A DNA stretch of 64,000 nucleotides from Candidatus Actinomarina sp. (GTDB taxonomy: Bacteria; Actinomycetota; Acidimicrobiia; Actinomarinales; Actinomarinaceae): contig JAYQJM010000005.1 in the NCBI GenBank assembly GCA_038142145.1, positions 515,816-579,815 of the forward strand, given 5' to 3'. Shown here in pieces: positions 4,572-59,733 of this stretch. How positions within the stretch are numbered: position 1 is the first letter of the stretch; every line of letters begins with the position of its first letter. Below the pieces are notes generated by a model. It did not search any database. It had not been told where the DNA came from and was given only the letters and a program-made list of their open reading frames with translations. A program made the position numbers and the translations under genes.

Positions 4572-5388
4572 TTATAACTTTCATTATTTCTTCATACACT
4601 ACTTCAGAATTATCCGTCGTCAACATTTTTAGTTTGGATTCTTTTTTAAACCACGTTATTTGCTTTTTAGCCAGTCTTTTTGTTTTGATATTAATATTTT
4701 CTTCATAATCATCCGATAAATTAAGTCCTATAGCTTGTAATACAGTTTTTGATGGGTTTTGTAAATTATCAACTTCATCAAGTAGTCCATTATTTATCAT
4801 GTTATTAGTTCTCTTTTCAATATTTATTTTGTAATCGGGATGATTCCAGAAAACTCCAACGTAATTATCTGGAATGCATAATTCAGGAAATACATATTTT
4901 GACTCTTCCAATATAAAATCTTCTATATTTCTAATTAAACGTCTTTTATTTAACTCAACATTTGGAAGTGGAATTTTGTTAAGCTCATGAAATAATTTCA
5001 ACTGATCAAAATTTAACTGCTCTAATTCTGATCGAATTGTAGGATCAGTAGGCTTAAATTCGTATCTGTCAAGCATGGCTTTAACGTAAAGACCAGAACC
5101 TCCAACAGCTAATATATCTTCATTAAAAGACTTTTCAGGAATATTTTGTTCAATTAAATAATTTAAATAATCAACGACGGAAAAATTTTGATCAGGATTA
5201 GCAATGTCGATTCCGTAGTACTTAACTTGTGCCTGCATGACTTGAGATGGTTTTGCAGTTAAAATATCCAAACCCTTATAAACAGCCATAGAGTCAACAG
5301 AAAGAATAGACATACCTCGTTCGATAGCGATCTTATGTGCAAGATTTGATTTACCTGATGCCGTAATTCCTGTAAGAAAATATATCAA
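4564..5388 (-). CDS. miaA: tRNA dimethylallyltransferase
   Basis: P-loop GITASGKSNLA and SVDSMAVYKGLDILTAKP. It overlaps miaB in an operon-like arrangement. Confidence 0.9.
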   Translation of the reverse strand: MIYFLTGITASGKSNLAHKIAIERGMSILSVDSMAVYKGLDILTAKPSQVMQAQVKYYGIDIANPDQNFSVVDYLNYLIEQNIPEKSFNEDILAVGGSGLYVKAMLDRYEFKPTDPTIRSELEQLNFDQLKLFHELNKIPLPNVELNKRRLIRNIEDFILEESKYVFPELCIPDNYVGVFWNHPDYKINIEKRTNNMINNGLLDEVDNLQNPSKTVLQAIGLNLSDDYEENINIKTKRLAKKQITWFKKESKLKMLTTDNSEVVYEEIMKVINE

Positions 5389-6638
5389 TTAATAATTTCA
5401 GCTTTCAAATAAAAAGGAGTTGCTTCTTTGATTTCAACATTTATATAATCTCCAACAGCTAGATTATCCTTATCTAGATGTGTAATGTGACCTCCATCTA
5501 TTTTTCCAGTAAATATCTCACTATTCTTTTTTGAAGTTTTCTCGACAAGGACTTTCTGCTTTGTGCCAATAAATCGTTTAAATCTTTTATGGCTAATATC
5601 AGTTTGTATTTCTTTTAATCTATTAAACCTATCAGTAATAATTTCTTTTTCTATGAAATCATCTTTCATATCGTAAGCTCTTGTTCCTGGTCTAGGTGAA
5701 AATTGAAACATAAATATAGAGTCAAATTCTGATGTCATTAAAACTTCTAATGTTTCTATAAAATCATTTTCTGTTTCACCTGGAAAACCAACAATTACAT
5801 CTGATGTTAAACTGACGTTATCTACTGTATTTTTTACTAAGTCAATTTTTTCAAGAAATTTTTCTTTTGTATAACCTCTTTGCATTTTAGACAATACTTT
5901 ACTACTTCCGCTTTGAAGTGGTACATGAACTTGTTTACAAACTTTTTCTAAATCATTAACAGCTTCTAATGTTTCTTTTTTGAAATCTTTAGGGTGAGGT
6001 GAAGTAAACCTAATTCTTTCTAAGCCATCAAGTTCATTTAGCTTATAGAGCAATTGAGCAAAATATGGCCTTGCTTTATTATCTATTCTTAAATCTCTAC
6101 CATAAGAGTTAACGTTTTGACCCAATAATGTAATTTCCTTTACTCCGCTATCTATCATAGATTTTGCTTCATTAATAATATCTGAAGGCCTTCTGCTTAT
6201 TTCAGCACCTCTTACAGAAGGAACTATGCAAAATGTACAAGAATTGTTACAACCAATTTGAATTGTAAGCCATGCTGAAAACTCAGACTCTCTTATTGAA
6301 GGTGCTTCGGTAGGCATTTCATCTATTTCATTGATTATTTCAGTTACAGGACCCCAATCCTCACTTTGATTAAGTAGATTAATTACATTTGTTAAATTAT
6401 GAGTACCCAAAACTACATCTACCCAAGGTGCTTTATCTCTTACTAATGATTTGTCTTTTTGAGCAGCACATCCGCCAACTAACAGTTTTCTATTTTCTTT
6501 TTTTAACTTCCACTGTTTTAACTGCCCTAACGTACCGTATAATTTATCATCAGCATTTTCTCGAATAGTACATGTATTAACAAACAATACATCAGCAGTG
6601 TCCTCATCTAGTTGCTCGAACCATTCCATCTTGTTCAA
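5385..6638 (-). CDS. miaB: tRNA-2-methylthio-N6-dimethylallyladenosine synthase MiaB, main ORF (lacks its true N-terminus)
   Basis: Radical-SAM motif CNNSCTFC, an MTTase N-domain remnant ([20 protein letters not shown]) and a C-terminal TRAM-like region. The first conserved GCQMN Cys motif is encoded upstream in another frame. Confidence 0.9.
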
Positions 6639-6765
6639 ATAGTCCAGCTATTCTTTCACTGTCATGTTCGTTCATTTGACAGCCAAAAGTTTTAAGATGA
6701 TATTTTAAACCAGATCTAGAAGGCTTTGTTATATACTTTTGTTTAATCTCAACAGTTTGTTCCAC
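6604..6765 (-). CDS. miaB: miaB 5' fragment in a different frame (frame-shifted N-terminus)
   Basis: GTG at 6765 opens [53 protein letters not shown], the canonical MiaB N-terminus. It stops at TGA 6604..6606 inside the start of the main ORF. Confidence 0.7.
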
Positions 6766-6805
6766 ATTAAGATTATAAAAAGCTTTTTAAGTAAATAAAC
6801 GTGAT

Positions 6806-9170: not shown

Positions 9171-9632
9171 ATGTTTGTGAAGAAGTTTATATTTTTGTTT
9201 TTGTTTCTTGCTTTTTGTTCACAAAATATTGAAGAAGAAGTATCTTCATCAGAACTTCCAATAAATGAAATTTCATTTACATATATAAATAGTGATATCG
9301 AAATAGCCAAAGAAGATTTTACCGACAAACAAACGATTATTGTATTTTGGGCTGATTACTGAAGCATCTGCCGACAGGAGTTGCCTGTCTTAGAAGAAGA
9401 ATTAGCAAACCTTACTGATAAGTATGACGTTCTTGCTCTCGCACATAGTGAGTACGGTCCAACATTGGATTGGGTAAGCGAAAACTTAAATGGAGAATTA
9501 AAAATAGGGTTTTCTACATCTGAACTTAGAGATTATTTCAGAGTTGTTGGACAACCTATAACTTTAATTCTTGATACAAATGGTGAGGTAATTTACAGAG
9601 AATTTGGTGCGATAGATTTTTCAAGTTTTTAA
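9171..9632 (+). CDS. TlpA/ResA-like thiol-disulfide oxidoreductase lipoprotein with in-frame TGA (9360..9362) at the first CxxC position
   Basis: Track ORFs 9171..9362 and 9381..9632 are in the same frame. The joined reading is ...TIIVFWADY-TGA-SICRQELPVLEE..., against the family motif FWxxWCxxCxxExP. There is a lipobox (LAFC) and the cis-Pro region VGQPITLILDTNGEV is retained. Confidence 0.6.
9373..9389 (+). promoter_or_regulatory. Hairpin 10 nt downstream of the in-frame TGA (bacterial SECIS-like candidate)
   Basis: GACAGG-AGTTG-CCTGTC forms a perfect 6-bp stem with a 5-nt loop. The loop G residues lie 18-21 nt after the TGA. Confidence 0.35.
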
Positions 9633-21037: not shown

Positions 21038-21775
21038 ATGCAAACAATTTTAAGCAATCTCGTCGCTGAGCAGCAATTACTAGACCAATACCTGCAAAGT
21101 ATTCCTGTAAGACATTGGAATACTAAAACCACATTTAAAAATTGGGATATCACCGCACATGTATCTTATCTTGCTGGTCTTGAAGATTTAGCTTTAAACG
21201 CTTTAAAGAAAAAAGGAACAGAATTCAATAAATATAAAGGTCCAAAAGGTTTGGAAAAATTTGAGAAAGAGTGTATTGCTAAAGGTAAAGACATGAGGCC
21301 TCAAGATGTTATTGAATGGTGGAGAATTTCAAGAGCTGATGTCATAGAAACTTTAGCAAAATCAGCACAAGGTAAAAAATTAACTTGGTGGAAAAATGAG
21401 ATTGACTGTATGACTTTTTCAGTTACGAAATTAGCAGAGACTTGGTCACATAGTTTAGATATTTACGAAGGTATGAAAAAAGATTATGAAGATTCAATTC
21501 GAATTGAACATGTTGCAATGTTTGGCTGGTTAAATGCTCAAAATGCTTCAAAGCTTAACAAATTAAAGTTTCAAGATTTAAGAGTTGAATTAATTGGACC
21601 AGAATATAAAGCTTGGCAGTTTGGTGATGAAAATAGTGAAAATTCTATAAAAGGTAGTGCAGGTGACTGGTGTAGAGTTGTTACTGGAAGATTGTCTAAA
21701 AGCAGTAAGCCTACTCTAACAACTGAAGGAGAATTTGCTTCAAAGTTTGTTAAGATGAACCACGTAAAAATATAA
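21038..21775 (+). CDS. DinB/MDMPI_N-like (mycothiol-maleylpyruvate-isomerase N-terminal domain, TIGR03084-type) protein
   Basis: The N-terminal pattern LVAEQQLLDQYLQSIPVRHWNTKTTFKNWDITAHVSYL resembles that actinobacterial family. Judged by eye only. Confidence 0.45.
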   Translation: MQTILSNLVAEQQLLDQYLQSIPVRHWNTKTTFKNWDITAHVSYLAGLEDLALNALKKKGTEFNKYKGPKGLEKFEKECIAKGKDMRPQDVIEWWRISRADVIETLAKSAQGKKLTWWKNEIDCMTFSVTKLAETWSHSLDIYEGMKKDYEDSIRIEHVAMFGWLNAQNASKLNKLKFQDLRVELIGPEYKAWQFGDENSENSIKGSAGDWCRVVTGRLSKSSKPTLTTEGEFASKFVKMNHVKI

Positions 21776-22536
21776 TGCAAGTTTACGGAGTTGTACACTT
21801 AAAAAGCCTTCCTGGCTCACCTTCCAATAGATTGTCTATTGATGAAATAATTGATTCGGCTCAAGAAGATGTAAATAGCTTAATATATGGTGGCGTAGAT
21901 GGCATCATAATTGAAAACTTTGGTGACACGCCATTTGTTAAAGATGATATTTCAAAAAGAACACTAGCTAGTTTTACAACTGTTGTTGAAAATCTATCTA
22001 TTGAAAGAGATATCAAAATAGGTATCAATGTCTTGAGAAATGATGGTATCGCTGCGTTGTCTATAGCGGAAGCAACTAAGTCTCATTTTGTAAGAATTAA
22101 TGTATTAAATAATACAATGTATACAGATCAAGGAATCATAGAGGGTGATGCTCATACAGTAAATCAGTTTAAGTCCTCTTTAAACAACTATATTGAAATC
22201 TTCGCTGATGTTTTTGTAAAACATGCTGTTCCACCACCTGGATCAAAAATAGAAAATCATGCTGAAGAATTAATACATCGAGCAGGTGCAGATGTTGTAA
22301 TCGTAACTGGTGATGGCACAGGACACGAAATAAATATTGAAGATTTGCAAAAGGTTAGAAATATCGTACCTCAAGGTAAGTTAGCTATAGGATCTGGAGT
22401 TACCACAACAAATGTTGATGCATATCAAGATATTGCAGATATATTGATTGTTGGTACTAGTTTTAAATTTGATAATGATGTCGCAAAAAGAGTTGACATC
22501 AATAGAGTCGAAGAGTTAGTTAGAAAAGTTAAATAA
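21775..22536 (+). CDS. BtpA/SgcQ family protein
   Basis: VYGVVHLKSLPGSP...GGVDGIIIENFGDTPF is the characteristic BtpA N-terminal signature. Its start overlaps the upstream stop (TAATG). Confidence 0.75.
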   Translation: MQVYGVVHLKSLPGSPSNRLSIDEIIDSAQEDVNSLIYGGVDGIIIENFGDTPFVKDDISKRTLASFTTVVENLSIERDIKIGINVLRNDGIAALSIAEATKSHFVRINVLNNTMYTDQGIIEGDAHTVNQFKSSLNNYIEIFADVFVKHAVPPPGSKIENHAEELIHRAGADVVIVTGDGTGHEINIEDLQKVRNIVPQGKLAIGSGVTTTNVDAYQDIADILIVGTSFKFDNDVAKRVDINRVEELVRKVK

Positions 22537-24285: not shown

Positions 24286-25524
24286 ATGGAAAATTTTAAA
24301 AAATATAAGGTGTTGCTTACTGAAAATAAAAACTTCCGTAAGTTGTTTATAGCCAGATTAATAACTCTTGGAGGTGACTGGTTATTGACTGTTCCTCTTT
24401 TAGGAATTATATATGGCTTAACAGAAAATCCATTTATTACTTCATTAGTTCTGGTAGTTCAAAGTGCTCCATTATTTATACTGGGAAGTTTTGGAGGATA
24501 TTTAGCTGACAAATATAATAGAAAAAAAATTATTGCAATATCAGAATTTTTATCTGGTTTAACAGTTCTTTTAATCCTGTATGCAGTAACAACTGAAAAT
24601 GTAGTATTTATTTTATTTTCATTTGGTATGTTGTCAGTAGTAGGTTCTCCTTATATGCCAACATCTGACGCAGCATTGCCTAATGTAGTAAAAAAAGAAA
24701 ATTTAGCTGAAGCAAATGTAATCTTTTTCTCAAGTTGGGGTGTTATGGCTGGTATAGGAGCTGGTATAGGCGGTTTTTTAACAACTGTAATAAGTAGAAA
24801 TATGCTTTTTGCAATAGATAGTTTCAGTTTTATATTGTCGGCATTAATTGTTTATTCAATCAAAAAAAACTTAAGTGAAGATTCTCAAAATAATGAAAAA
24901 GATGAAAATATAACTTATGTAGAGGGAATCAAATATGCAGCGTCTAAAAGAGATGTTTTTTCATTAATTATTACAAAAGGCACATTTAGTATTTCTGCTA
25001 GTGGACTGCTGTCTTTATTTACTGTTTTATCATATGATATTTATAAGACTGGAGATTTTGGTACTGGTTTAATGTTTGGTGCAAGAGGTGTGGGCGCTCT
25101 TGTAGGACCTATTGCAATTAGATATTTTTTTGGCCATTCTGATGGAAAACTTCTTAACACAATAGGTCTTACCATAATGGTTTGGGGATTATTTTATTTC
25201 TTTATACCATTTTCTGTATCCCTTTATTTGACTGTTTTTTTATTAGTTCTTGCACATTCCGGAGGAGGATCACAATGGGCGTTTTCAACTTACGGACTTC
25301 AAATACTTACACCTGACAGATTAAGAGGAAGAATTTCAGGTATTGACTACTCTTTTAACTTTTTAATGAATACAATTTCAACACTAATGATTGGATATCT
25401 TGCATCCATTTATGGTGTGATATTTGTATATAGACTTTTCCCTGTTCTAGGTTTTACATTTGGTCTAACTTGGTATCTTTCAACAAAAAAATTATGGAAA
25501 AAATTAGATTCCTCATTGGGATAA
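24286..25524 (+). CDS. MFS transporter
   Basis: 412 aa with about 12 TM helices and the MFS loop motif GGYLADKYNRKK. Confidence 0.8.
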   Translation: MENFKKYKVLLTENKNFRKLFIARLITLGGDWLLTVPLLGIIYGLTENPFITSLVLVVQSAPLFILGSFGGYLADKYNRKKIIAISEFLSGLTVLLILYAVTTENVVFILFSFGMLSVVGSPYMPTSDAALPNVVKKENLAEANVIFFSSWGVMAGIGAGIGGFLTTVISRNMLFAIDSFSFILSALIVYSIKKNLSEDSQNNEKDENITYVEGIKYAASKRDVFSLIITKGTFSISASGLLSLFTVLSYDIYKTGDFGTGLMFGARGVGALVGPIAIRYFFGHSDGKLLNTIGLTIMVWGLFYFFIPFSVSLYLTVFLLVLAHSGGGSQWAFSTYGLQILTPDRLRGRISGIDYSFNFLMNTISTLMIGYLASIYGVIFVYRLFPVLGFTFGLTWYLSTKKLWKKLDSSLG

Positions 25525-57715: not shown

Positions 57716-58729
57716 ATGAAAAATATGGTAAATGTTTCTCTTGTTGGGTTTGGAAGGGTCGGAAGGGACCTAGTAAGACAATCTATCGAAAATGATAATA
57801 TAAACATAATTTCGATCTCGGATACCGCTGATAAATCAAATCTTATTTACTTACTTAAATATGACACTATTTATGGAAAGTTAAATGCTGAAGTTATTGA
57901 AACTGAAAACGGAATAAAAATCGATAATAAGGAAGTTTTATTTAATAATTGGAAAGATGCTTCCGAATCAGATTGGGAATCATTAAATACAGATATTGTT
58001 GTTCTAGCAACTGGAAAGCCTCAAAATAGCAATGAAGTTCAAATGCATCTAGAAAAAGGCTGTAAAAAAGTTATTATTGCATCTACACCTGAAGAGTTTG
58101 GAGATATTCAGATTTATGTACCAGGTGCGAATGATGAAGTTGTTGACTTTAGTAAAAATGTTTTCTCACTTGGTTCAAACACTGCAAATGCTGTAGCACC
58201 GGTTTTAAAAGTGTTAAATGATAGTTTTGGCATTGAAAGAGCTTTCTTAACTACAGTACATGGATACTCAAATTCAAATAGACTTGCTGATGTCGCTGGT
58301 GAAGGTTTTAGATTAAATCGTGCTGCTGGAGAAAATATTATACCAAGTATCACTTCGTCTTCAGAAGTTATTTCAGAAGTTGTCCCATTTATAAAAGGAA
58401 ATATTGCTTCATCTTCTATGACAGTGCCAATACCAGATGGAAGTACCGTAGATTTAACAATTGACCTTGCAAAGGAATCATCAATCGATGAAGTTAACAA
58501 TAAACTTTTAGAGGCTTCCCAAAATGAACTAAAGGATATTATTGGCTTAACTTATGACCCAATTGTTTCCTCAGACGTTGTTAAAAGTACTCTATCAGGA
58601 CTGGTTGATGGACTTGCAACTATGGGTATTGAAAATAGAAAAATAAAACTCATTATTTGGTTCGATAATGGGTGGGGTTATTCTGCCAGAATTATCGACA
58701 CAATTAAAAAATTAAGTCAGGAGCTCTAA
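57716..58729 (+). CDS. GAPDH-family paralog lacking the catalytic cysteine (predicted non-dehydrogenase)
   Basis: It aligns end to end with the downstream gap and keeps GFGRVGR, TTVHGYS and WFDNGWGYS. However, SNASCTTNCLAP is replaced by SLGSNTANAVAP (Cys->Asn at codon 58178..58180), TSTGAAKAV by SITSSSEVI, and MRVP by MTVP. Confidence 0.8.
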   Translation: MKNMVNVSLVGFGRVGRDLVRQSIENDNINIISISDTADKSNLIYLLKYDTIYGKLNAEVIETENGIKIDNKEVLFNNWKDASESDWESLNTDIVVLATGKPQNSNEVQMHLEKGCKKVIIASTPEEFGDIQIYVPGANDEVVDFSKNVFSLGSNTANAVAPVLKVLNDSFGIERAFLTTVHGYSNSNRLADVAGEGFRLNRAAGENIIPSITSSSEVISEVVPFIKGNIASSSMTVPIPDGSTVDLTIDLAKESSIDEVNNKLLEASQNELKDIIGLTYDPIVSSDVVKSTLSGLVDGLATMGIENRKIKLIIWFDNGWGYSARIIDTIKKLSQEL

Positions 58730-59733
58730 TGTCAAGAATTGCAATCAACGGTTTTGGTCGAATTGGAAGGTCCATATTAAGAATTATTGTTGAACAACAA
58801 TCAGATATAGAAGTTGTTGCTATTAATGATCTTGGTGATTACAAAAATCTAGCATACTTACTAAAACATGATTCAGTAATGGGTATTTTAAATGAAAACG
58901 TTTCAGTAGACGGAGATGTCATGAAGGTTGGTGACAGATCGATTAAATTAATCTCTGTAAAAGATCCAGCTAATTTACCTTGGAAAGATTTAGAAATTGA
59001 CGTTGTTATAGAGTCAACAGGTATATTTAGAGATAATGATTCTTTAAACAAACATTTAAATGCTGGAGCAAAAAAAGTTTTACTTACAGTTCCTCCAAAA
59101 GATGAAATAGACGCAACTATTGTCCTCGGTGTGAATGATGAAGATTTAAGTCCAGAACATAAGATTGTTTCAAATGCTTCATGTACTACGAACTGTTTAG
59201 CTCCAATTGCAAAAGTGTTGGATGATAATTTTGGAATAAAGTCTGGCCTCATGACTACTGTCCATGCTTACACCAACGACCAAGCATTAGCAGAAACTAC
59301 TCACAGCGACTTTAGAAGAGGAAGAAGCGCTACACAAAATATTATCCCTACATCTACTGGTGCCGCAAAAGCTGTTGGGATGGTCCTTCCAAAGCTTAAC
59401 GGAAAACTAGATGGTATGGCAATGCGTGTCCCTGTGCCAGATGGCAGCGTTGTTGACTTAGTAGTAGAACTAGAAAAAAATGTAACAATTGAAGAAGTTA
59501 ATAAGGCGGTCAAAGAAGCCGCGGAAAATGAACTAAAAGGAATTTTAGAATATTCAGAAGTCCCCTTAGTTTCAACTGATATTCTTAACAATCCCCATTC
59601 AAGCATTTATGATGCATCATCAACTCAGTTAATCGGAGAAAATCATTTAAAAGTTGTATGTTGGTATGACAATGAATGGGGTTATTCAAACAGGGTCGTT
59701 GATTTAATTGGCAGCCTTGTTTCAGATGGATAA
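58729..59733 (+). CDS. gap: Type I glyceraldehyde-3-phosphate dehydrogenase
   Basis: NGFGRIGR, SNASCTTNCLAP, TTVHAYTNDQ, TSTGAAKAV, MRVPVPDGS and WYDNEWGYS. The ATG overlaps the upstream TAA and is preceded by AGGAG. Confidence 0.95.
   Translation: MSRIAINGFGRIGRSILRIIVEQQSDIEVVAINDLGDYKNLAYLLKHDSVMGILNENVSVDGDVMKVGDRSIKLISVKDPANLPWKDLEIDVVIESTGIFRDNDSLNKHLNAGAKKVLLTVPPKDEIDATIVLGVNDEDLSPEHKIVSNASCTTNCLAPIAKVLDDNFGIKSGLMTTVHAYTNDQALAETTHSDFRRGRSATQNIIPTSTGAAKAVGMVLPKLNGKLDGMAMRVPVPDGSVVDLVVELEKNVTIEEVNKAVKEAAENELKGILEYSEVPLVSTDILNNPHSSIYDASSTQLIGENHLKVVCWYDNEWGYSNRVVDLIGSLVSDG

Follow-up and report, generated by a model that had tools for sequence, protein, structure and literature searches.

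The 64,000-nucleotide (nt) window analyzed here, a stretch of contig JAYQJM010000005.1 from a Candidatus Actinomarina genome (assembly GCA_038142145.1), carries a candidate selenoprotein gene, encoding a small lipoprotein of the TlpA/ResA-like thioredoxin fold whose reading frame is interrupted once, by a TGA codon at the predicted catalytic site. Two open reading frames (ORFs) make up this locus, 9171..9362 and 9381..9632. Both lie in the same frame and together translate into a single product of 153 codons with one internal stop, as the original prediction had proposed when it joined the two ORFs into one protein carrying selenocysteine (Sec) in a UxxC motif. The active-site block reads FWADY-TGA-SIC-RQELP, a cis-proline block, VGQPIT, is found further downstream in the product, and a perfect hairpin follows closely behind the TGA. 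The parts of the gene are listed in Table 1, together with the positions of distant homologs that share the interrupting codon.

Table 1. Parts of the candidate selenoprotein gene in the window, and positions of distant homologs with an in-frame TGA.
Feature	Position	Strand	Remarks
Complete candidate selenoprotein gene, TlpA/ResA-like thioredoxin-fold lipoprotein, U64-x-x-C67 active site	9171..9632	+	153 codons plus TAA
Predicted lipoprotein signal peptide, residues 1-15, plus lipobox L-A-F-C	9171..9218	+	Read from sequence
Cys16, predicted lipidation residue	9216..9218	+	Invariant in 17 aligned orthologs
UGA codon 64, very probably Sec, nucleophilic first position of UxxC	9360..9362	+	Aligns to first Cys of CxxC in solved structures
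TGC, Cys67, resolving residue of UxxC	9369..9371	+	Invariant in the 17-ortholog alignment and in all homologs
Candidate selenocysteine insertion sequence (SECIS) hairpin	9373..9389	+	Stem 9373-9378 with 9384-9389; loop AGUUG 9379-9383
CCT, Pro129, predicted cis-proline (GQP loop)	9555..9557	+	G127, Q128, P129 invariant; precedes modeled strand 130-134
TAA, true stop	9630..9632	+	30/30 Actinomarinales sequences end exactly 89 codons past the TGA
Distant TGA homologs	L044:4868, L045:10145, L046:5049, L047:6612, L048:2959, L051:10085

The predicted protein begins with the hydrophobic segment MFVKKFIFLFLFLAFC, which reads as a lipoprotein signal ending in the LAFC lipobox that had been proposed earlier, and across the aligned orthologs this box keeps a [LVI][ASG]C-like form around its invariant Cys. 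Sequence matches in the PDB (ResA, TlpA, DsbE, and Etrx proteins) span residues 28-150 and align the TGA with the first Cys of CxxC, as in 3ia1, where the partner segment is FWASWCTVCKAEFP; the cis-Pro loop of these homologs aligns with the GQP loop of the protein. Hence, the alignments to solved ResA/TlpA-type structures agree with the earlier placement of the TGA on the nucleophilic Cys, and the cis-Pro region proposed at the same time is likewise present. An AlphaFold model built from the ortholog alignment (predicted local distance difference test score, pLDDT, 80; predicted template modeling score, pTM, 0.73) has a TlpA-type thioredoxin fold, in which strands 35-40 and 45-49 lie ahead of the core and residue 64 sits at the N-terminus of helix 65-76 (alpha1), directly after strand 54-60. 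The best Foldseek matches to this model are Etrx1/2, ResA, DsbE/CcmG, StoA, TlpA, and Mycobacterium tuberculosis DsbF (E ~1e-8, template modeling scores 0.63-0.77), the pneumococcal surface lipoprotein thioredoxins Etrx1 and Etrx2 ranking at the top. In profile searches, made with Cys substituted at the TGA, the NCBIfam models for ResA, DsbE, TlpA, and StoA match at scores far under their cut-offs. The protein is thus a divergent member of the TlpA/ResA/CcmG-like thioredoxin-fold group (cd02966).

Its motif, Y63-U64-S-I-C67-R-Q-E70-L-P72, contains three residues that are invariant in the 17 orthologs, C67, E70 (position +6), and P72 (position +8). These features are shared with the Cys-containing extracytoplasmic reductases Bacillus subtilis ResA, Bradyrhizobium TlpA, Escherichia coli CcmG/DsbE, Streptococcus pneumoniae Etrx1/Etrx2, and M. 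tuberculosis DsbF, which have the same fold (template modeling scores ~0.65-0.75), an active site at the N-terminus of alpha1, Glu at +6, Pro at +8, and a cis-Pro loop; they are membrane-anchored or lipoproteins, and the protein described here carries a predicted lipoprotein signal. It differs from them in having a codon for Sec, on our reading, in place of the nucleophilic Cys, in its low identity (only 14-22%), and in the residue ahead of the active site, which in Actinomarinales is Tyr instead of the family Trp (Y-U, not W-C); the Sec forms of Acidimicrobiia retain W. Unlike genes of ResA/CcmG type, this one lies outside any cytochrome c maturation or sco operon. Its product is most likely an extracytoplasmic, lipid-anchored reductase or isomerase that uses a selenenylsulfide.

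Evidence on the nature of the TGA comes from its conservation. Exact copies of the 63-residue N-terminal fragment ending at this codon occur in two NCBI assemblies (GCA_038143875.1 and GCA_038105105.1, the two that hold the exact gene), two Joint Genome Institute (JGI) metagenomes, and two Logan assemblies; with six further contigs that encode a database protein designated P0001, this gives 12 independent contigs from 12 samples, produced by several assemblers. A scan of species-representative genomes yielded a further set of 29 Actinomarinales genomes, comprising single amplified genomes (SAGs) and metagenome-assembled genomes (MAGs), and all 29 species carry TGA at codon 64, down to 48% amino acid identity, in a frame that is open and homologous on both sides. 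Across all 48 interrupted copies (36 non-redundant) the interrupting codon is TGA, and in none is it TAA or TAG. Base-call error, one of two alternatives left open by the original prediction, is excluded because the same TGA stands on 12 independent contigs. A sequencing or assembly error at 9360..9362 has in its favor nothing more than the general possibility of such errors in MAG or long-read assemblies, and with the TGA recurring across those 12 samples (the two NCBI genomes, JGI, and Logan) and in 35 other genomes, single-cell genomes among them, its probability is effectively nil.

Beyond the order, six distant homologs at ~30% identity also carry TGA, in the form FWAEW-TGA-xxC or FWSST-TGA-xxC; the source is a high-GC Acidimicrobiia/Actinomycetes MAG for five of them and an Anaerolineae (Chloroflexota) MAG for the sixth. 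In a further 10 homologs, this column is TGC or TGT (WCxxC). The occurrence of TGA and TGC/TGT forms at one column identifies a Sec/Cys pair. The question of which codon the orthologs use therefore has a layered answer, with TGA in every Actinomarinales species and in the six distant homologs, and TGC or TGT in more distant ones.

The frame downstream of the TGA is under purifying selection. Over the 89 codons that follow it, the median ratio of nonsynonymous to synonymous substitution rates (dN/dS) among 30 Actinomarinales sequences is 0.157, at a synonymous divergence (pS) of 0.61, near saturation; the conserved block upstream of the TGA gives a dN/dS of 0.05. All 30 sequences are free of internal stops downstream and share the position of the terminal stop, which is TAA in 29 of them and TAG in one. 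The downstream half is thus intact and constrained, with none of the further lesions that decay would leave, as the original prediction had anticipated for a recoded gene.

These observations bear directly on the second alternative, in which a TlpA-like gene lost its function through a single nonsense substitution from TGY or TGG to TGA. TGA is a single substitution away from TGC, TGT, and TGG, and serves as an ordinary stop in the window. A real lineage-specific lesion is also present in this genome: at the 5' end of miaB (window 6600..6774, minus strand; main ORF 5385..6638), a one-nucleotide disruption of the frame is common to the window and to GCA_038143875.1 (L007, contig JAYQMS010000004.1), two sequences that differ elsewhere by a single-nucleotide polymorphism. 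One frame runs into a stop there and the next one carries the protein sequence on; the disruption marks either a pseudogene specific to this lineage or a site of recoding. Because the miaB frameshift is confined to that lineage, with miaB intact in 28 other species, it shows the pattern of a genuine lesion, from which the TGA of the TlpA-like gene departs, being fixed in 29 species and six distant homologs ahead of a constrained, lesion-free frame.

A further point in favor of a pseudogene comes from the databases. The protein collection contains many apparently full-length orthologs (151-160 residues, 54-97% identity), and in all 27 database orthologs that were inspected the residue at the Sec site is Trp, which would suggest a Trp-containing family and a TGG-to-TGA pseudogene in the window. 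This reading was rejected, since the DNA of the P0001 contigs and of the 29 species carries TGA. P0001 is the best database match, and its six encoding contigs had been flagged as not translating to the query. In the cluster listings, no full-length form occurs on a contig longer than 5 kb; where contigs are long (up to 911,943 bp), the gene is called as two "hypothetical protein" fragments of 63-88 residues. Most likely, the Trp residues are an artifact of a metagenome-mode gene caller that picks the TGA=Trp translation table on short, AT-rich contigs. With the apparent Trp accounted for, the conserved TGA and the constraint downstream refute the nonsense-mutation alternative, which we regard as extremely improbable. 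The same artifact can disguise a true selenoprotein as a TGG-to-TGA pseudogene; conversely, it could help in searching low-GC lineages for selenoproteins.

The fragment calls on long contigs also raise the possibility of two genes, a 63-residue lipopeptide that ends at the TGA and a separately initiated protein of 83 residues, and the public annotation of those contigs is what speaks for it. However, neither half is a folding unit, as both the thioredoxin fold and the active site straddle the TGA, and the downstream half lacks its own signal peptide although it contains the cis-Pro loop that has to lie opposite the U/C site. Only the TTG at 9381 could start a separate downstream ORF, and this codon is TTA, not a start codon, in 15 of 30 species; the fragment calls themselves start variably, giving products of 70 to 88 residues. 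Two independent genes at this locus are accordingly an exceedingly unlikely explanation.

Downstream of the UGA, the mRNA can form the hairpin GACAGG-AGUUG-CCUGUC, a 17-nt element with a 6-bp stem and a 5-nt loop (A-G-U-U-G), which starts 10 nt past the UGA and whose loop G residues lie 18 and 21 nt past it, exactly as first described. It overlaps codons R68 to V73, including those of the conserved ResA-type residues Glu70 and Pro72. By the published criteria for a bacterial SECIS (bSECIS), the apical loop should measure 3-9 nt and the upper stem 4-16 bp, the first or second loop position should be a G, in most cases with G or U after it, the loop should lie 16-37 nt from the UGA, and the minimum free energy (MFE) should be -7.5 kcal/mol or lower (PMC13188914). 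The window element agrees with all four, with G at loop position 2 followed by U, a spacing of 16 nt, and a 17-mer MFE of -7.7 kcal/mol (-10.5 kcal/mol for 45 nt including a weak, non-conserved lower stem), and the SECIS-compatible geometry suggested for it is thereby borne out. Some of the ortholog 17-mers are weaker, with MFEs between -6.1 and -7.0 kcal/mol.

Conservation of the helix was assessed across the Sec forms. RNAalifold, applied to 33 Sec-form sequences, returns the hairpin stem as the sole consensus helix. In a count of pairing, 97.9% of cells are paired, compared with 40-59% in controls in which the 3' arm was slid, and one stem pair varies between A-U (16 sequences), G-U (11), and G-C (5). 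The codons within the hairpin are strongly biased relative to the codon background of genomes of ~32% GC: Glu is encoded by GAG in 30 of 30 sequences (background 19%), Arg by CGG in 16 of 16 (1.8%), Gln by CAG in 14 of 14 (18%), and Val by GTC in 28 of 30 (7.5%), and the Pro codon CCA, with a background of 47%, is used in 0 of 30. As a control, the next Glu, just beyond the helix, is GAA in 23 of 30. Synonymous divergence inside the hairpin codons is 0.34, against 0.61 for the 89 downstream codons.

Among the 36 TGA forms, 34 have a perfect 6-bp helix with an AGUUR loop, at a median MFE of -7.2 kcal/mol. The 10 Cys forms, which encode the peptide CR[RQ]ELPV[LV]E, reach a median of two contiguous pairs, with loops that vary and a median MFE of -2.6 kcal/mol for the 17-mer. 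The presence of the hairpin in TGA forms and its absence in Cys forms with the same peptide imply that it tracks the UGA and not the protein sequence. Judged from these sequence comparisons, the RNA structure is selected independently of the peptide that it encodes, and the proposal that the hairpin is conserved holds through the variable A-U/G-U/G-C pair, the retention of rare pairing codons, and the missing helix in the Cys forms. All six distant TGA homologs retain the SECIS apex GGAGUUGCC; the hairpin of L045 is the same as the 17-nt hairpin of the window, and L048 and L051 retain four of the six pairs.

Coding-region stem-loops of the E. coli fdhF type, and the bSECISearch consensus, resemble this element in lying 3' of the UGA, in having a small apical loop with G and then U, and in the 16-nt spacing; its sequence is unrelated to that of the fdhF SECIS, and it differs further in having no bulged U, no conserved lower stem, and no Rfam match. 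The minimal E. coli fdhF SECIS is a 17-nt upper stem-loop that lies 11 nt from the UGA, of the same size and placement as the hairpin here. No Rfam family matches the region, and permissive thresholds on 9300..9470 gave chance-level matches, which is expected since bacterial SECIS elements are poorly represented in Rfam. Neither a scan for in-frame TGA codons nor a search for the SECIS core GGAGTTRCC revealed a second selenoprotein gene in the window. The core sequence does occur a second time, as GGAGTTACC at 22396..22404 on the forward strand, inside an uninterrupted ORF (21775..22536) and with no in-frame TGA upstream. We judge this match to be due to chance (two matches in the window, 0.24 expected).

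Several observations weigh against a selenoprotein at this locus. As a stand-alone fold, the 60-nt region is not significantly better than its shuffles (z = -1.2), and the argument for the hairpin therefore rests on comparative evidence. The hairpin is short, its covariation amounts to one pair with double changes in five sequences, the conserved catalytic-motif codons by themselves favor part of the helix (CAGG...CCUG), and one of the Cys forms, L050, reaches five pairs. At the protein level, the Pfam AhpC-TSA match is marginal (26.2 bits, cut-off 26.0), and Redoxin (22.4 bits, cut-off 26.6) and Thioredoxin_8 (22.7 bits, cut-off 27) both fall below threshold. Genes for the Sec machinery (tRNA-Sec, selA, selB, and selD) were not found in the 64-kb window or in the fetched flanks: the window was scanned with ARAGORN and Rfam, 45 loci were scanned with ARAGORN, and E. 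coli SelA, SelB, and SelD, used as tblastn queries against all loci, matched only IF2. A search of metagenome contigs for AT-biased back-translations of the SelA motif GDKLLGGPQ recovered 120 genuine sel loci, none of which could be assigned to Actinomarinales, and the preprint that reports the machinery in the genus, described below, is not peer-reviewed and has neither GCA_038143875.1 nor GCA_038105105.1 in its list of NCBI genomes.

Among these metagenome sel loci, L132 looks deltaproteobacterial and the L127/L162 clade carries TonB-receptor genes; tetranucleotide correlation did not discriminate. Two contigs from unrelated metagenome organisms carry a tRNA-SeC with anticodon tca, one ~150 nt from selA (L066:1340-1432, minus strand) and the other ~2.7 kb upstream of selA (L129:3544-3636, plus strand), from which it follows that the tRNA finder detects tRNA-Sec where it is present. 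In the window, ARAGORN called a 99-nt "tRNA-Stop" with anticodon tta at 24741..24839 on the forward strand, within a 412-residue transporter-like ORF (24286..25524). The Rfam tRNA model misses it, and the call is probably spurious; its anticodon also sets it apart from a tRNA-Sec, which would carry tca.

The preprint "Actinomarina, resolved" (10.64898/2026.04.03.716425) reports that all 84 complete Actinomarina genomes carry tRNA-Sec(UCA)/selC, selA, and selD along with a divergent selB, and it predicts ~5 selenoproteins per genome, most of them uncharacterized; thioredoxin and TlpA are not mentioned in it. According to its supplement, phnC, rpsO, and nusA fall among genes 651-683 in one of the genomes, which matches the gene order of the window. 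From this map order, selD, selC, and selA are expected to lie several hundred kb from the gene described here. For the genome at hand, we infer the Sec machinery from this report together with the order-wide conservation of the UGA-plus-SECIS module.

The remaining alternative is that the UGA is decoded, but not as Sec: through reassignment of UGA to Trp or Gly, near-cognate read-through by tRNA-Trp, or insertion of Cys by a Cys-tRNA(Sec). The window, at 32.5% GC, is AT-rich like lineages with reassigned UGA, gene callers scored the TGA=Trp table better on short contigs, and the Sec machinery was not directly seen in the window or the fetched flanks. However, TGA terminates 11 of 67 long ORFs in the window, and six gene junctions have an ATGA or TTGA stop/start overlap; TGA thus serves as a normal stop codon in this genome, which excludes its reassignment to Trp or Gly. 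The homologs, moreover, have Cys at this column, not Trp or Gly, a conserved hairpin of SelB-type SECIS geometry that is absent from the Cys forms stands beside the UGA, the high-GC relatives keep both UGA and hairpin, and tRNA-Sec(UCA), selA, selB, and selD are reported for the genus. Decoding of this UGA as anything other than Sec is thus very unlikely. With the conserved TGA, the hairpin tied to it, and the purifying selection on both halves all pointing the same way, we conclude that 9171..9632 is very probably a real selenoprotein gene in which UGA encodes Sec, and the UxxC selenoprotein first proposed from this sequence is well supported.

The mechanism that we infer for its expression and function would run as follows. 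The hairpin 10 nt past the UGA would act as a bSECIS and recruit SelB with GTP and Sec-tRNA(Sec), such that insertion of Sec replaces termination. The signal peptide would route the protein through the Sec protein translocon, and it would be lipidated at Cys16. There, on the external side of the membrane, the U64/C67 pair would alternate between the selenolate/thiol and selenenylsulfide states, reducing or isomerizing disulfides in a partner protein, which by analogy with the family could be apocytochrome c, a copper-center assembly factor, or a methionine sulfoxide reductase. Re-reduction would come from a membrane protein of the CcdA/DsbD type. Genomic context gives no clue to the substrate, the gene lying between cinA/recA and phnDCE.

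Thioredoxin-fold UxxC proteins are the commonest predicted class of bacterial selenoproteins, and marine metagenome surveys catalogued them in 2005 and 2008 (PMC1088965, PMC2398784). The closest described group is the "thiol-disulfide isomerase-like" family (cd02966 TlpA-like / PF13905, UxxC), predicted from the Sargasso Sea metagenome by Zhang, Fomenko, and Gladyshev in 2005 (PMC1088965) and also listed in PMC9312934 and PMC13188914. Like the gene presented here, it is marine, has a TlpA-like fold with Sec first in UxxC, has widespread Cys homologs, and carries a bSECIS just past the UGA; unlike it, that family was defined from four anonymous reads with no organism attached, whereas the present gene is assigned to Actinomarinales, is found order-wide, and is a predicted lipoprotein. 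By description, the present gene matches this family, whose representatives are MAK15852.1 and MGB1650493.1, and it may belong to it.

The Global Ocean Sampling (GOS) survey (PMC2398784) defined the groups "Prx-like 1" (PF00578), "Prx-like 3" (PF08534), and "Trx-like 1" (COG0526), all with UxxC. These share with our protein the motif, the thioredoxin fold, and marine abundance, and its weak Pfam matches (AhpC-TSA, Redoxin) are to the same models. By description, it differs from them in that its structural neighbors are ResA, CcmG, Etrx, and TlpA, not peroxiredoxins, and in that CxxCxxExP is a pattern of ResA/TlpA type. A further candidate, NCBIfam NF041054 (ResA-like WAxxUGC, a UGC-containing TlpA family selenoprotein), is also ResA/TlpA-like and has Sec after a WAxx block, but its motif is U-G-C (UxC) in a protein of ~354 residues, compared with WADYU[SG]xC (UxxC) in one of 153. 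Membership in NF041054 was rejected on the score (13.4 bits, cut-off 300) and on the different motif spacing.

Against this background, the finding extends the known thioredoxin-fold UxxC class, catalogued since 2005, and involves no new mechanism. What is new is the assignment to Actinomarinales, the order-wide fixation, the predicted lipoprotein nature, and the characterization of the SECIS, as well as the related Sec forms in high-GC Acidimicrobiia/Actinomycetes MAGs and in an Anaerolineae MAG. The gene is misannotated wherever it was examined, either split or with Trp at the Sec site, and is consequently missing from functional inventories.

Elsewhere, the window contains F420 biosynthesis genes and an actinobacterial-type RecA, which is 88-90% identical to that of every named Candidatus Actinomarina representative, with conserved synteny; this gene content and the related loci place the window in Actinomarinales. 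Two adjacent forward-strand ORFs at 57716..58729 and 58729..59733 (337 and 334 residues) have GFGRIGR-type N-terminal motifs and resemble glyceraldehyde-3-phosphate dehydrogenase; from a reading of their translations, they may be a tandem pair of paralogs.

The candidate SECIS lies over the catalytic-motif codons R-[Q/R]-E-L-P-V, with the result that its apex is frozen at the nucleotide level from Actinomarina, at 32% GC, to the high-GC Acidimicrobiia and the Anaerolineae MAG. Such a frozen pattern points either to an ancient Sec form or to horizontal spread of a protein-and-SECIS module between phyla. We therefore raise, as a tentative and still rather doubtful proposal, that the protein represents a distinct, unnamed lineage of Sec-form TlpA-like surface lipoproteins present throughout Actinomarinales, one of the ~5 clients that would justify a Sec machinery in a genome of ~1.1 Mb, with a SECIS that was written over catalytic codons and is either ancient or horizontally spread.

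Few free-living bacteria of the ocean are smaller or more abundant than Actinomarinales. A selenoprotein found across the whole order offers a concrete and testable reason for a genome of ~1.1 Mb to keep the Sec machinery, and it ties the extracytoplasmic redox chemistry of these bacteria to the marine supply of selenium.

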